Below are positions 7,911 to 27,497 of a stretch of 64,000 nucleotides of DNA, piece after piece. The first letter of the stretch is position 1; each line of letters starts with the position of its first letter. A model generated the notes under the pieces. That model saw only the letters and a program-made list of their open reading frames with translations. It searched no databases and had not been told where the DNA came from. Where the stretch lies: the NCBI GenBank assembly GCA_964500775.1, contig CAZCQG010000006.1:5584-69583 (forward strand), given 5' to 3'. The stretch is from an uncultured Campylobacterales bacterium (lineage in GTDB: Bacteria; Campylobacterota; Campylobacteria; Campylobacterales; CAZCQG01). The position numbers and the translations under genes are program-made.

Positions 7911-9869
7911 ATGGATTATCAAGATTATTTAAACAAAGTCTCTCAAATAAGTAAATATGCACATTACTATTACGTCCTTGATAATCCTTTAGTAAGCGAT
8001 GCAGAATATGACAAACTCTACCATGAGGTAGTCTCCATCGAACAAGCGCATCCCGAATGGATAGATGCGGCATCGCCGACGCAGCGAGTAGGCGGGAAGC
8101 TATTGGAGGGATTTGGCAAGGCGGAGCATTTGGAGCGGATGTGGAGTTTGGAGGACGTCTTTGATTTTGACGAGCTCCTCACTTGGGTGAATAGAATCAA
8201 AAAAGAGTTTAAAGAGCTGCGATTCCTTTGTGAGCCGAAATTTGACGGCGCTAGCCTCAATCTCGTCTATGAAGATGGAATCTTGCGACAAGCCATCACT
8301 AGAGGAGACGGAAGAATCGGCGAAGAAATCACGGCAAATGCGCGGGTGATAAATACGATTCCGCTTAGAATCGAACACAAAGGGTTACTAGAAGTACGGG
8401 GTGAAGTGGTCATCACCAAAGAGGATTTTGAAGCGATAAATATTGAGCGGAGCCAAGAAGGCGAATCACTCTTCGCCAATCCGCGAAATGCCGCTAGCGG
8501 CAGCCTGCGGCAGCTAGACCCTAGAATCGTACAAAAACGGCGGCTCATATTTTTGCCGTGGGGCATCGGGAGAAACTCCATCATAGAATCCTCGCTTGCT
8601 AAAAAGATGGAATATATCTACTCGCTTGGATTTAAACGCCCCGATTCTAGGGGAGTATTTGAGGACATACACGACATCGAGCTTTTTTACAAAGAGATGG
8701 TGGAGAAACGAAACGACTTCCCGATGATGCTCGATGGAATGGTGATAAAAGTAGATGACATCAACATACAAAACGAACTGGGCTACACGATAAAATCGCC
8801 GAAATTCGCCTGTGCGTATAAATTTCCCGCCGTAGAAAAAACCGCCAAGATAAACGACGTGGTGCTTCAAGTCGGAAGAACGGGAAACATCACCCCCGTA
8901 GCGTTGCTAGAGCCCGTCAGCATCGAAGGGGCGATGATCTCGCGCGCCACGCTGCATAATTTTGACGAGATCGAGCGCAAAGACATCCGAATCGGTGATA
9001 GCGTCATCATCATCCGTAGCGGAGACGTGATTCCAAAAATCATAAAAAGCACCCCTGAATTGCGTGTAGGGAGTGAGCAAATTATCGAACGACCGCAATT
9101 CTGCCCTACTTGCGGCGGGGAACTGCTCGATGAAGGGGCACTCATCAAGTGTCAAAACCTCGCCTGCCCCGATAGGATAGTCAACAACCTCATCCACTTT
9201 TGCTCCAAAAAAGCGCTCAATATCGAAGGATTGGGTGAGAAGATCGTCACTCTCCTCTATGAAAAAGGAATCATCAAAGAGGTCAAGGATATTTTTTCCC
9301 TCGACAAAGAGACGCTTTTGGGATTGGAAGGATTCAAAGAGAAAAAAGCACAAAACATCCTTGAGAGTATCACCGCGGTTATCGGCGCTCCGTGCCATCG
9401 ATTTATCTTTGCGCTAGGAATCGAACATATCGGGGAAGGGGCAAGCAGAGAACTGTGTGCAGCATTTGGGATAGATTTTTTAAACAGAAGTTATGAGGAG
9501 TATATCGGAATCTCGGGATTTGGCGAAGAGATGGCGAAATCGCTTTTGGAATTTAGCCGCGTCAACACACAAAAAGTCGCCGAACTCATAGCGATACTCC
9601 AACCCCAATCCGCCGCAAAAATGCAAGTTGCCGATTCGCCGTTTGCGGGAAAAAGCGTGGTGATTACCGGCACTCTCTCCATCGGGCGGGATGAGCTTAA
9701 AGAGAGGCTCCTAGCACTCGGCGCGAAGATAAGCGGTAGCGTTTCAAAAAAGACCGACTACCTCATCTGCGGAGAGAGTGCGGGGAGCAAACTCGATAAA
9801 GCGCAAGAGCTTGGAATCGCGATACTTGACGAAGCGGGACTAGAATCGCTCTTAGCCCAGATTGATTGA
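7911..9869 (+). CDS. ligA: NAD-dependent DNA ligase LigA
   Basis: 652 aa. KxDG adenylation motif (CEPKFDGAS), four-Cys Zn finger ([23 protein letters not shown]), HhH region and a C-terminal BRCT ([10 protein letters not shown]...). Confidence 0.95.
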
Positions 9870-11069
9870 GAATATCGGAAGTAGCATCGCAGTAACGATA
9901 AAACCGATGATACCGCCGACAAAAAGCATCAAAAACGGCTCCAAGAGCGAAAGAAAGAGGGTAATCTTGTCTTGATTCTCCTCGAAATAGAGATTTGAGA
10001 GATTTTGGAGAATCTTGCTCACTTCGCTCGTCTCTTCACCGAGACTTAGGGCTTGTACGAAGGATTTATCGATCTGGTATTTTTGGGCATTCAGTGCTAC
10101 CGAGAGCTTGCCCCCTTCGACCACTTTTTCGCTCGCACTCTCAAATGCCTCTTGTATGATGACGTTATTCAAAATCTTTGATGAGAGATTGATACTTTGC
10201 ACAAACGGCACACCCGCTCGAAAAAGTATAGAAGTGATATATGCAAAACGCCCAAGCTCGCTACTCTCGACGATACTTCCGACAATCGGGATTTTGAGTA
10301 GTAAAGAATCATTCATCCTTTTAAACCCTTTTGAGATTTTCAGCAAGACAGGGTAAAAAATCATTATCGCCAAAAATCCAAACGCAAGGAGTTGCCAGTT
10401 ATTTTGAAACCACTCTCCCGTACCGATGACTATCTTGGTGATAAGCGGCAAATCTTGATTGAGCTGCTCAAAAATCGAAGTGATTTTCGGAACGACGTAG
10501 GTGAGCATAAACCCAACCATCATAAATGAGACGGTCAAAATAAACATCGGATAGGCAAAAGAGCTTTGGATTTGTTTATTGATACGCTCTTGATTCTTGA
10601 GGAGTTTTGAGAGCTCATCAAGTACTTCATCCATTATCCCGCTATCTTCGGATACCTTTATGGATTGTTTGTAAAATTCGGGGAGTTCGAGAACTTTTTG
10701 AGATTCTAATGCGTGATAAAAGTCTTTTCCTTCATCCAAAGATGTGGCTACGGATTCTAAAAATAACGCGATTTTTTTACTTTTTCCGTATTGATTTTTC
10801 GCGAGTTTTATCGCATTGACTATCGAGATGCCGGAGTTTATATAGATGCTCAAATCACGGCTAAGATTGGCTAGGTCTTTATAGGAGATTTTCTTCTTAC
10901 TGAAAAGGGACACGTTTTTTAATAGCGGCTCGGATTCTTTGTTTATGGACTGGTAAATGATGTTTTTAGCTTTTATCTTCCCTTTTGCGTCATCGAGATT
11001 TTGGGCTTCTACTTTCCCTTTAACTTTTTTACCGCTATTTTTATCTATACCGCTAAAACTATAAATCAA
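9852..11069 (-). CDS. gspF: type II secretion system platform protein GspF family
   Basis: 405 aa. Two T2SSF-type repeats, three TM segments, and a C-terminal [20 protein letters not shown] tail typical of GspF/PilC. Its 3' end overlaps ligA convergently by 18 nt and its 5' end overlaps the upstream pseudopilin gene by 11 nt. Confidence 0.85.
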
Positions 11070-11580
11070 ATTCTGTTTCCTTCATTTCTTTGAAGGCTGA
11101 TTGCAAGTATTGTTCCAACTCGCCTATGCTCTCAAATACATCGGGGAGATATTTTTGTGCTCTATAATAAAATAGCGACGCACCGTCACTTAGAAGCGCT
11201 TCATTTGCGCTCAAACCGTCTCTTATTTTTAGCTCAAAACAAATATTTTCATAAACACCGAGGTATTTTAGATCTATACCTCTAGGTTCGCTAGAGAGTT
11301 TATCTCCGTAGAGAGAGTAGGCTTTGGTATGCTGAGGTAGATTGAAGTTTCCTATTTTTTCATTTTTTTTACTATCAAAGACATCGCACTTGAGGCAATA
11401 GTCATAACAGAGTACGTCTAGATTTTCTATGGAATATATGCTTGAGAGTTCTACGAAATTTTTTATGCTTGGTTTTTTCTTTTGTTCGAGTTTTTGGAAG
11501 GATATTATCGCTACGGTGTAAACTATTGAGAGGAGCAAAACTACAATCAATAGCTCAAAAAGGGTGAATGATTTTTTCAA
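11059..11580 (-). CDS. minor pseudopilin (prepilin-type N-terminal cleavage/methylation domain)
   Basis: 173 aa. N-terminus MKKS|FTLFELLIVVLLLSIV fits the class III signal (short basic leader, F+1, E+5, hydrophobic helix). Confidence 0.75.
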   Translation of the reverse strand: MKKSFTLFELLIVVLLLSIVYTVAIISFQKLEQKKKPSIKNFVELSSIYSIENLDVLCYDYCLKCDVFDSKKNEKIGNFNLPQHTKAYSLYGDKLSSEPRGIDLKYLGVYENICFELKIRDGLSANEALLSDGASLFYYRAQKYLPDVFESIGELEQYLQSAFKEMKETEFDL

Positions 11581-26582: not shown

Positions 26583-26994
26583 CGCCTTTAGCTTAGTAGA
26601 AGTAGTCATTGCCGTTACCATCATCTCTATGCTCTCGGTCGCGATTCTCCAAGTCTCGCAAAACTCTATCGCTTATACGCAAGATTCTAAAGAGAGATTC
26701 CGAGATACCGTATTGCTTACCCTTGATGTTCGAGAGAATCTAAACAAGAACAAACAAGACGAGTTGTTTATTGATACCCTCCTCGAAGAAAAATACGCTA
26801 TACCCGAGAAAGAGCTGCAATTTTTCAAAGATAAAAAAATAGCCTACAAACTAGAATCCGACGAGGAGCTAAAATTCATACTTCTTGATAAAGAGAGCGG
26901 TATGCCTCCCATCGACTTGCCTCGCCTAGCAAAGGTGACGCTTCGTGACGCAAAACATGGGTCGTTTATCTATATTCTACGAGATGCGCATTGA
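26572..26994 (+). CDS. minor pseudopilin (GspH/I-like)
   Basis: 140 aa. MMRNA|FSLVEVVIAVTIISMLSVAIL is a prepilin-type N-terminus with E+5. Overlaps gspE by 11 nt. Confidence 0.7.
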   Translation: MMRNAFSLVEVVIAVTIISMLSVAILQVSQNSIAYTQDSKERFRDTVLLTLDVRENLNKNKQDELFIDTLLEEKYAIPEKELQFFKDKKIAYKLESDEELKFILLDKESGMPPIDLPRLAKVTLRDAKHGSFIYILRDAH

Positions 26995-27497
26995 AAAAAG
27001 GTTTTACGCTAGTAGAGATAATAGTCGCGATTACTATTTTTAGCATCGCTACACTGTTGATGTACAGGGTCACCGAATCGCTTAGGGTGGCAAACGGCAA
27101 CCTCAAAAGACATTCAGAAATCGCAAAAAACGATAACCTGCTACTAGAAAATTTTAAACTCGATTTTCTCTACTCCGATGAGGGAAATGTTACATACAAA
27201 AAGGGTGAGCGCTTTGATGCTATAATGTTTACCTCAAGACATTCACTATACGGGATTTCTCGACCTTATATCGAATACCACGTATCGAAAAATAAAAAAC
27301 TTTGGAGAGTGGAATCGAGCATAGATCACAATCTGACTATAGAAGACGAACACTTTATGTATGTAAAATTTGATGCCATAGCCCGAGATGTCGAGAGGTT
27401 TAAAGTGTACGAAGCAAACGGGAGTAAGCTAGTATATATACAAAGCGCCGGCAAAGAGCCGCTCTTTTTCGAGCTAGCTCATCCGAGCGCTATATAA
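26991..27497 (+). CDS. minor pseudopilin (GspJ-like)
   Basis: 168 aa, TTG start. MKKG|FTLVEIIVAITIFSIATLL is a canonical G|FTLxE prepilin motif. Confidence 0.7.
   Translation: MKKGFTLVEIIVAITIFSIATLLMYRVTESLRVANGNLKRHSEIAKNDNLLLENFKLDFLYSDEGNVTYKKGERFDAIMFTSRHSLYGISRPYIEYHVSKNKKLWRVESSIDHNLTIEDEHFMYVKFDAIARDVERFKVYEANGSKLVYIQSAGKEPLFFELAHPSAI

Follow-up and report, generated by a model that had tools for sequence, protein, structure and literature searches.

The stretch of DNA analysed here, 64,000 nucleotides (nt) from an uncultured Campylobacterales bacterium and hereafter called the window, carries at 9852-27497 a locus predicted to encode a complete Gsp-type type II secretion system (T2SS), of a clade that is widespread among non-pathogenic Campylobacterota. 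The arrangement is a familiar one, a T2SS with probable cargo in its neighbourhood, and not a new type of system. Five genes for exported proteins lie between the two divergent arms of the locus, and two of them encode the Ig-like lipoproteins p518 and m545. T2SS-dependent surface display of these two lipoproteins is the best-supported model because of the residues that follow their lipid-modified cysteines, the tight packing of p518, p231 and gspK, and conservation in a related locus, L172. We hold this model with moderate confidence; the case is weaker for the largest junction product, m1198.

T2SSs are widespread in environmental Campylobacterota, including Sulfurimonas, Sulfurovum, Arcobacter, Nitratiruptor and vent symbionts. 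The literature reports no substrate for a Campylobacterota T2SS and covers these systems by annotation or transcriptomes only. In Acinetobacter, Burkholderia, Shewanella and Klebsiella, lipoproteins that depend on a T2SS carry Gly/Ser- or Asn/Asp-rich residues after the lipid-modified Cys, and GspN is required for them (PMC12802150). Examples are InvL, among others, in Acinetobacter and PulA in Klebsiella; for Burkholderia and Shewanella, candidates are described (PMC12802150). The window locus and L172 supply testable candidate substrates, namely Ig-like lipoproteins with the GspN-linked motif after the cysteine. If the model is true, the lipoprotein branch of type II secretion reaches a distant phylum.

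An earlier note on this DNA had read the locus as a divergent T2SS with large cargo-like proteins at the head of each arm, forming a dedicated machine-plus-cargo unit. In this study, we compared the proteins of the window with 80 genome loci and 80 metagenome loci (designated by L numbers), and scanned species genomes for GspD with an alignment as query, as a single GspD sequence returned nothing. The source organism has no close sequenced relative; its RplS, Ffh and TrmD are singletons at 90% identity. All coordinates without an L number refer to the window.

Results

The machine proteins group with type II secretion

The earlier note's placing of the secretin and ATPase with the Gsp families, and not with type IV pilus or competence families, is borne out by searches with hidden Markov models (HMMs): GspD exceeds an equivalog cut-off, and GspE, GspF, GspC and GspG score best on T2SS models. 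The secretin GspD (p618, 618 amino acids (aa); 23207-25063, plus strand) is made up of an N0 domain (PF21305, 63 bits), three Secretin_N domains and the Secretin domain, with a helical C-terminal tail beyond it. Its score on TIGR02517 is 367.8 against a cut-off of 351.35, as compared to 207 on the PilQ model, 133 on the MshL model and much lower values on the HofQ and SctC models. The ATPase GspE (p505, 505 aa; 25065-26582, plus) matches PF00437 with 463 bits and has a visible CxxC...CxxC motif; it scores 584.5 on TIGR02533, under the strict equivalog cut-off of 630 and above PilB (500) and ComGA (278). The inner-membrane platform protein GspF (m405, 405 aa; 9852-11069, minus) contains two PF00482 T2SSF domains (155.7 bits). 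TIGR02120 is its best NCBIfam model, at 278 bits under a cut-off of 424, and GspF proteins of related loci share 50-68% identity with it. GspC (p270, 270 aa; 22330-23142, plus) has a membrane helix and a PDZ domain; its top models are GspC_delta (86.8 bits), TIGR01713 (81 bits) and Synergistes GspC, all under their cut-offs.

The pseudopilins complete this picture. The major pseudopilin gene gspG (63229-63657, minus) lies 36 kb from the locus, and its product, at 146.7, exceeds the TIGR01710 cut-off of 88.85. It is assigned to this T2SS because its orthologues immediately precede gspH in 109 related loci and on a Nitratiruptor plasmid, and it is 56.5% identical to GspG of the T2SS on that plasmid. 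The gspH-like minor pseudopilin (m173, 173 aa; 11059-11580, minus) has the prepilin N-terminus FTLFELLIV and weak N_methyl and GspH matches, and its homologues sit between gspG and gspF in relatives. Two further minor pseudopilins end the plus arm: the gspI-like p140 (140 aa; 26572-26994), above the cut-off of TIGR02532 with weak GspI and PilV matches, and the gspJ-like p168 (168 aa; 26991-27497), with a prepilin motif above cut-off and weak GspI and GspJ matches. The gspJ-like gene is kept downstream of gspE in 67 loci.

The full C, D, E, F, G, minor pseudopilin and K, L, M set that the earlier note had listed, with the peptidase missing, is present, with L and M putatively assigned by position, size and membrane topology. 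Searches of the 64-kb window by tblastn and phmmer with two reference proteins found no A24 prepilin peptidase. Its gene may lie in another part of the genome, which is common, and we do not count the absence from the window against T2SS membership.

The K, L, M and N slots

Pfam and NCBIfam models gave no direct match for the K, L, M and N products, nor for p51, p518, p231, m545 and m1198. The four slot families are conserved across 118-120 loci (118 for L and for N), and profile searches of these families against PDB sequences were negative. Relatives provide the connection to known families, and by such transitivity the putative K and N assignments are supported. Twelve K-slot relatives match the NCBIfam GspK model NF037980 (best E 1.9e-8), and the K slot aligns by hhalign across an SA..NxN motif with E 0.0035; the hhalign references for GspK, GspL and GspM were two-sequence alignments drawn from pO157 (Etp) and Providencia. 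Five N-slot relatives match the Leptospira-type model TIGR04411 T2SS_GspN_Lepto (best E 7e-4). The N-slot protein itself (p178, 178 aa; 21819-22355, plus) has an N-terminal membrane helix.

The L and M proteins are putatively assigned by position, size and membrane topology, with sporadic weak family matches. The L-slot protein (p322, 322 aa; 20450-21418, plus) is bitopic with a central membrane helix; GspL_C matches one family member (0.005), and hhalign gives E 0.1 on an LPxxxRxxxxLPxxLEE motif. A single-sequence AlphaFold2 (AF2) model of p322 was unusable, at a predicted local distance difference test (pLDDT) of 38. The M-slot protein (p134, 134 aa; 21415-21819, plus) has an N-terminal membrane helix. 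One of its relatives matches PF04612 T2SSM (1.2e-4), and the hhalign match is weak (E 0.26).

The start of gspK is unusual. The conserved N-terminus of this minor pseudopilin begins at an ATA codon at 19579, upstream of the first canonical start, GTG 19618, and from there the protein has 294 aa (19579-20463, plus). It reads I-KKG/IALLITI, versus MKKGIALLITI in relatives, which have ATG. The ATA overlaps the TAA stop of p231 (as ATAA) and adjoins a run of seven A residues at 19581-19587. It could be a non-canonical, translationally coupled start, a start-codon mutation or a sequencing error.

Lipoproteins at the divergent junction

The five genes between the arms span 11645-19582, and each encodes a product with an export signal, which is a lipobox in three cases, a Sec signal in one and a membrane anchor in one. 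The earlier note's statement that the promoter-proximal genes encode exported proteins is thus confirmed for every junction product. On the plus arm, p51 (17098-17253) is a small lipoprotein with a strong ribosome-binding site (RBS), the lipobox GFSG/C and a Tyr/Pro-rich tail. It is followed by p518 (17320-18876), a lipoprotein of Ig-like, Big_2-type repeats with the lipobox LLGG/C and the mature N-terminus C-G-S-G-T, and by p231 (18887-19582), which is anchored by an N-terminal membrane helix and whose stop codon overlaps the probable gspK start. The gap between p518 and p231 is +10 nt, and the p231/K junction is -4 nt if K starts at 19579; this spacing suggests co-transcription.

On the minus arm, m545 (15367-16965) is a lipoprotein with the lipobox LLIKG/C and the mature N-terminus C-D-G-G-S. 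Aligned with one another, its repeats resolve into three Ig-like modules of about 105 aa with four cysteines each, and there is a sub-threshold PF13629 match. The open reading frame (ORF) at 15367-17004 was correctly given in the earlier note, but the length of 545 aa was not retained: the start is most likely GTG 16965, with an AAGGA RBS, which would give 532 aa, and exactly this 532-aa product is already recorded as a called gene.

Both p518 and m545 bear Gly/Ser/Asp tails after the cysteine, and they were the only lipobox proteins returned by the lipobox scan of the window. Among related loci, such a tail is found in 19 of the 22 lipoproteins encoded within two genes of a T2SS, versus 8 of the 33 further off (Fisher p 7e-6, with loci that share ancestry and are not independent). 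The T2SS genes of relatives and of the Nitratiruptor plasmid also have lipoprotein families that recur at their flanks. A kinship of p518 to these recurrent families was considered and set aside; the hhalign probability was 37-42%, and the alignment, which includes the signal peptide, is too weak.

The junction is best compared with that of L172, where GspD, GspE and GspF are 47%, 75% and 68% identical to those of the window. Homologues of p51, p518 and p231 occur there in the same place and order, followed by K-L-M-N-C-D-E-I-J. The p51 homologue is 49% identical (GCISATLDIGDS...PPPYYVPYY), and the p51 motif was found in no locus besides L172. The p518 homologue is a 473-aa lipoprotein with a sub-threshold Big_2 match (30% identity over 325 aa, E 3e-21), and that of p231 has 221 aa (21% identity over 176 aa, E 2e-5). 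In the position of m545 lies a divergent lipoprotein gene whose mature product begins C-D-G-T-S and within which the contig ends; gspH-gspF are located elsewhere in L172, convergent with gspJ. The closest relative, L001, has a GspD 69% identical to that of the window, and its contig is cut off inside gspK. The p51-p518-p231 trio thus appears to be a conserved feature of the sublineage that evolves faster than the core.

None of the five junction genes has a homologue in the 160 scanned T2SS loci (80 from genomes, 80 from metagenomes). The earlier idea that the cargo genes travel with the machine accordingly stands for p51-p518-p231 in L172 and falls for all five genes in the scanned loci; at this longer distance the large proteins are absent from homologous loci, a result that the earlier note had named as counting against its proposal.

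m1198 is a predicted chain of Ig-like domains

The fifth junction gene, m1198 (11645-15241, minus), has a strong AGGAG RBS and a 125-nt upstream gap, and encodes a protein with a Sec signal peptide that ends VNA/G. The mature protein has 126 kDa, a pI of 4.2 and no Cys. A word-based search retrieved m1198 itself only, and a word-index search with the family alignment added one protein. Exhaustive HMMER searching identified 38 distant relatives of 1100-1300 aa, so that the family comprises 39 representatives at 22-39% identity.

The AF2 model of m1198, built with the family alignment, is a nearly all-beta multi-domain chain (pLDDT 72.9, predicted template modelling score 0.70). Foldseek against PDB matched this model to tandem Ig-like arrays only (the MpIBP and SiiE adhesins, the surface-layer (S-layer) protein SbsC, and PorU), and no enzyme fold was found for m1198 in that search. 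The model therefore depicts m1198 as a chain of Ig-like beta-sandwich domains. Its composition fits that typical of S-layer proteins (acidic, Cys-free, 40-200 kDa), which are abundant, secreted and able to self-assemble into a lattice, and its fold is a generic Ig-like array, seen in adhesins as well as in SbsC. We regard m1198 as a predicted surface adhesin or S-layer-like protein, linked to the T2SS by adjacency in this genome alone. The earlier note had tied this large protein to the machine, a tie that is not upheld: relatives of m1198 occur away from T2SS genes, and the gene looks monocistronic. A C-terminal motif seemingly shared by m1198 and m545 (BLAST E 0.001) was rejected, being unsupported by a family HMM of the m1198 C-terminus.

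Layout of the two arms

Two diverging arms had been described in the earlier note, and every ORF listed for them was found at its coordinates and size. The minus arm comprises gspF (9852-11069), the pseudopilin gene (11059-11580), the gene for the 1198-aa protein (11645-15241) and the repeat protein ORF (15367-17004). The plus arm (17098-27497) comprises p51, p518, p231, the K, L, M and N slots, gspC, gspD, gspE and the two pseudopilin genes. Its overlapping junctions likewise hold, at -14 nt for K/L, -4 for L/M, -1 for M/N, -26 for N/C, -11 for E/I and -4 for I/J. Beyond the minus arm, ligA (7911-9869, plus) converges on gspF, and the 3' ends of the two genes share 18 nt.

The minus arm is probably not a single operon, because a strong terminator separates m1198 from gspH and m1198 has its own RBS and upstream gap. 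The terminator, a Rho-independent hairpin at 11599-11638 (minus), stands directly after the m1198 stop, within the 64-nt gap before gspH. It folds with a dG of -17.3 kcal/mol (z -6.7, equalled by 0 of 200 shuffles), and UUUUAU follows the stem. Consensus scans for promoters and terminators performed no better than on shuffled sequence.

The divergent intergenic region holds a perfect 20-nt inverted repeat with a 22-nt spacer at 16999-17060 (AAACAATTATCATTCCAAAA / TTTTGGAATGATAATTGTTT), and a third half-site of 11 nt lies at 17120-17130, inside p51. Neither the rest of the window nor the corresponding region of L172 contains the exact motif AACAATTATCA. We infer that the repeat is a candidate operator.

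Gene order among relatives

The scan of species genomes returned 550 GspD relatives, with hundreds of full-length proteins in Sulfurimonas, Sulfuricurvum, Sulfurospirillum, Arcobacter, termite-gut Campylobacteraceae and others, and about 175 related Campylobacterota loci are of the same T2SS type. Their commonest gene order is G-H-F-K-L-M-N-C-D-E-I-J on one strand (L173 and L174 included). A divergent form, with G-H-F opposed to K...J, is found in L035, L042, L043, L047, L065, L093, L094, L097 and L102 and also on 35-kb Nitratiruptor plasmids, on which GspE is 72.7% identical to that of the window; rotated and split orders were found as well. The split of machine genes across divergent arms, which the earlier note had thought unusual, is hence a recurrent variant. 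What appears peculiar to the window is the loss of gspG from the head of the H-F arm and the presence of five other genes in the junction. Most likely, an ancestral G-H-F-K-L-M-N-C-D-E-I-J operon was rearranged in this lineage, which left gspG 36 kb off, gspH-gspF opposed to gspK...J, and five lineage-specific genes for exported proteins in between.

Plasmids of Nitratiruptor strains and Aliarcobacter cryaerophilus carry this T2SS type as well: NZ_AP023064.1 of Nitratiruptor sp. YY08-26 (L167, 35.3 kb), NZ_AP023060.1, NZ_AP023066.1 and NZ_CP032824.1. The Nitratiruptor plasmid carries in addition an S8 peptidase, an 857-aa secreted protein, two peptidyl-prolyl isomerases, extra pseudopilins, glycosyltransferases and a Ser-rich lipoprotein of the same family as one encoded after gspJ in other loci. 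It looks like a mobile T2SS-plus-cargo package. The NCBI Prokaryotic Genome Annotation Pipeline (PGAP) labels the K, L, M and N products on this plasmid 'hypothetical protein'.

Other families recur near the T2SS of relatives. Genes for a SapC-family protein (PF07277) and a 144-aa protein lie directly downstream of gspF in L172 (13184-13888, minus), L087, L090, L091 and L092; these are L172 and several loci in which G-H-F form a separate unit, and PF07277 is named after the Campylobacter fetus S-layer locus. A family of proteins of about 190-230 aa with an N-terminal membrane helix occupies the divergent junction or the flanks of T2SS loci in L035 (5832-6407), L043 (5768-6463), L047 (5807-6382), L102, L090, L092 and L015, with two copies on the Nitratiruptor plasmid (L167 21776-22390 and 30527-31096). 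Membership of p231 in this family was tried and rejected; no match was found, and an iterative search drifted into the M-slot family. In L173, an ORF of more than 3247 aa (13623-18386) runs off the contig about 2.7 kb downstream of gspJ, past a toxin-antitoxin pair, and is possibly another giant surface protein near a T2SS.

Other features of the window

A second type IV filament cluster, with its own secretin, ATPase and platform genes, occupies 38797-46641 (plus). It contains four upstream ORFs of no assigned family, an MshL-type secretin (41315-42805; TIGR02519, 256.5, above cut-off), an MshE-like ATPase (43592-45394) with an N-terminal motif for binding cyclic di-GMP (c-di-GMP), and a GspF/PilC-like platform protein (45391-46641). 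By these similarities it is probably a mannose-sensitive haemagglutinin (MSHA)-type pilus. After gspG, on the same strand (59731-63177, minus), lie genes for a 307-aa secreted protein and an 839-aa PAS-GGDEF-EAL protein. The latter, taken with the motif in the MshE-like ATPase, is a hint that c-di-GMP may control surface structures. At 33654-38713 (plus), NuoL-, NuoH-, NuoB- and NuoD-like products have the look of a membrane-bound formate-hydrogenlyase or Hyf-type [NiFe] hydrogenase, as seen from N-terminal sequences only.

Discussion

In the model that we favour, the junction products would cross the inner membrane via Sec, and p518 and m545 would become lipid-modified. The T2SS would then carry both over the outer membrane, and they would stay attached to the cell as surface-bound Ig-like lipoproteins. 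In this machine, GspE on the F/L/M platform would drive a pseudopilus built from G, H, I, J and K, the outer channel would consist of GspC and GspD, and the GspN-like protein might handle the acyl chains. The genes p51, p518 and p231 would be co-transcribed with gspK-J. The machine's identity, the export signals and the gene order with its conservation are shown here; co-transcription, T2SS dependence and surface location are inferences. By contrast with the two lipoproteins, m1198 would be a separately transcribed surface or S-layer-like protein, whose export by the same machine is possible and less certain.

Several points weigh against this model. T2SS substrates are not predictable from sequence, and the literature on Campylobacterota T2SSs consists of annotation and transcript levels, with no experiment for any such system. 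The machine is dispersed, as gspG and the prepilin peptidase lie outside the locus, and the L and M slots have weak sequence support. Its expression may also be impaired: the ATA start may lower or abolish GspK synthesis, and the RBS and terminator of m1198 may leave gspH-gspF without a promoter of their own. Among the junction products, p51 (C-I-S-A-S) has no Gly/Ser/Asp tail, and m1198 and m545 have no homologue in about 175 related T2SS loci. The neighbourhoods of m1198 relatives in L083 and L084 contain no T2SS genes, and in one Sulfurimonas metagenome-assembled genome the m1198 relative (L170) is on another contig than the T2SS (L056). Finally, conservation could be checked in only one informative locus, L172, as there is no close sequenced relative.

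The alternative that best survives is coincidence, which we consider somewhat unlikely. The T2SS would then be a general one, and the 8-kb junction a rearrangement hot spot that gathers fast-evolving envelope genes, whose products would be delivered by Sec/Lol or another route that bypasses the T2SS. Gene order in the clade is indeed very plastic, being colinear, divergent, rotated or split, and the neighbours of the T2SS are heterogeneous (61 clusters, 47 singletons). The base composition of the insert is unremarkable and does not point to recent acquisition from elsewhere; m1198 is followed by its own terminator, belongs to a family found apart from T2SS genes and, like m545, lacks homologues at other T2SS loci. 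A hot spot does not, however, readily account for the p51-p518-p231 trio, which is kept at the head of gspK...J in L172 despite evolving faster than the core, for the overlap of p231 with K, or for the enrichment of Gly/Ser/Asp tails in T2SS-adjacent lipoproteins.

The conserved order of the trio and its position directly upstream of gspK, in both the window and L172, would also suit lineage-specific accessories of the machine, with p51 or p518 as a pilotin-like outer-membrane lipoprotein for the secretin and p231 as a GspB-like assembly factor of the inner membrane. Family models identified no pilotin or GspA/B homologue in the locus, and GspD has a helical tail after its secretin domain; in other T2SSs, such a helical C-terminal tail binds the pilotin. 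In other relatives and on the plasmid, moreover, the divergent junction holds genes of a different family of small bitopic proteins. Yet most relatives, which are colinear, have a full T2SS without the trio, and mature p51, with 32 residues, is far below the size of known pilotins. The identities between window and L172 (30% for p518 and 21% for p231, as compared to 75% for GspE and 68% for GspF) form a pattern more typical of surface-exposed proteins, and the Ig-like repeats and acidic pI of p518 resemble those of adhesin cargo such as InvL. We therefore judge an accessory role to be clearly unlikely.

About as improbable, in our estimation, is an extension of the surface-display model in which the whole junction is a T2SS-dependent surface-coat module, with m1198 exported as an S-layer-like or giant adhesin protein and held on the cell by m545 and p518, and with p51 and p231 as lineage-specific helpers. 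If true, it would be the first surface-layer-building T2SS in Campylobacterota, like Sps/VapA of Aeromonas with unrelated proteins.

That the machine is a Cts-like DNA-uptake or pilus system and no protein exporter is hardly credible: CtsD, CtsE and CtsF of Campylobacter jejuni, which are T2SS-like, do serve transformation, and a shorter Arcobacter secretin class labelled 'type II secretion/transformation' is 41% identical to the window GspD, but that 478-aa secretin aligns over 68% of the query and is stand-alone in A. butzleri with no such neighbours, whereas the window has a full-length secretin (N0 and three N domains) above the GspD equivalog cut-off with HofQ, PilQ and MshL far lower, the T2SS-specific GspC with PDZ, GspK and GspN-like proteins, and a separate MSHA-type pilus cluster.

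A further point concerns annotation. The K, L, M and N proteins of this clade escape current family models, and PGAP has therefore left them as hypothetical proteins on the Nitratiruptor plasmid.

Comparison with known systems

A dedicated machine-plus-cargo unit, which the earlier note had put forward, is an established category, exemplified by PulA, StcE/Etp and VapA/Sps. The locus resembles the Pul system of Klebsiella in pairing a complete T2SS with a neighbouring surface-displayed lipoprotein, which is a candidate here. As pulA is transcribed divergently from pulC-O, a divergent pair of cargo and machine has precedent. The Pul machine genes, however, are all on one arm, whereas in the window gspH-F and gspK-J are on opposite arms and gspG is 36 kb off. 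The candidate cargo of the window, moreover, consists of Ig-like repeats with no enzyme domain, and the K, L, M and N proteins encoded there have diverged beyond the reach of curated models. No substrate of Pul other than PulA is known (PMC4505419), and PulA requires PulN, a GspN homologue, and a special pattern of residues after the lipid-modified cysteine (PMC12802150).

The Etp system offers a second likeness, in its promoter-proximal cargo gene and its mobility. By record annotation, stcE immediately precedes etpC-O on pO157-type plasmids, and in Providencia the gene of an M66 protease precedes gspC; plasmids of Nitratiruptor and A. cryaerophilus likewise carry the Campylobacterota T2SS type. 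Unlike the lipoproteins considered here, StcE is a soluble metalloprotease, and the Etp genes run C-D-E-F-G-H-I-J-K-L-M-O-S on one strand, peptidase and pilotin included.

In Aeromonas salmonicida, vapA, the structural gene of the A-layer (a surface-layer) protein, adjoins the genes of its own T2SS, Sps, a dedicated second T2SS (PMC4483657). The S-layer-like make-up of m1198 (acidic, Cys-free, all-beta, with its own strong RBS and terminator) beside a T2SS is reminiscent of this pair. The differences are that m1198 (126 kDa) shows no sequence relationship to VapA (about 50 kDa), that its relatives are unlinked to T2SS genes, and that the window T2SS is the only one seen in the window while Sps is a second system.

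With InvL of Acinetobacter baumannii, an Ig-like (invasin-like) adhesin lipoprotein, p518 and m545 share the post-cysteine pattern, and a GspN or GspN-like protein is present in both cases. In contrast to the candidates here, invL lies outside the gsp operon. GspN is an optional T2SS component with an AsmA-like beta-taco fold; the N-slot protein of the window has 178 aa, and its relatives match Leptospira-type GspN weakly.

Within the same phylum, the Cts system of C. jejuni has a secretin, an ATPase and a platform protein of T2SS ancestry. Cts is not known to include GspC, K, L, M or N; CtsP and CtsX are found there in their place. C. jejuni uses the T2SS-like CtsD, CtsE and CtsF for transformation (Wiesner 2003 and Beauchamp 2014, as cited in PMC9856085). 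The short secretin class is a separate branch, stand-alone in Arcobacter, whereas the secretin of the window is full-length and is accompanied by GspC and GspK.

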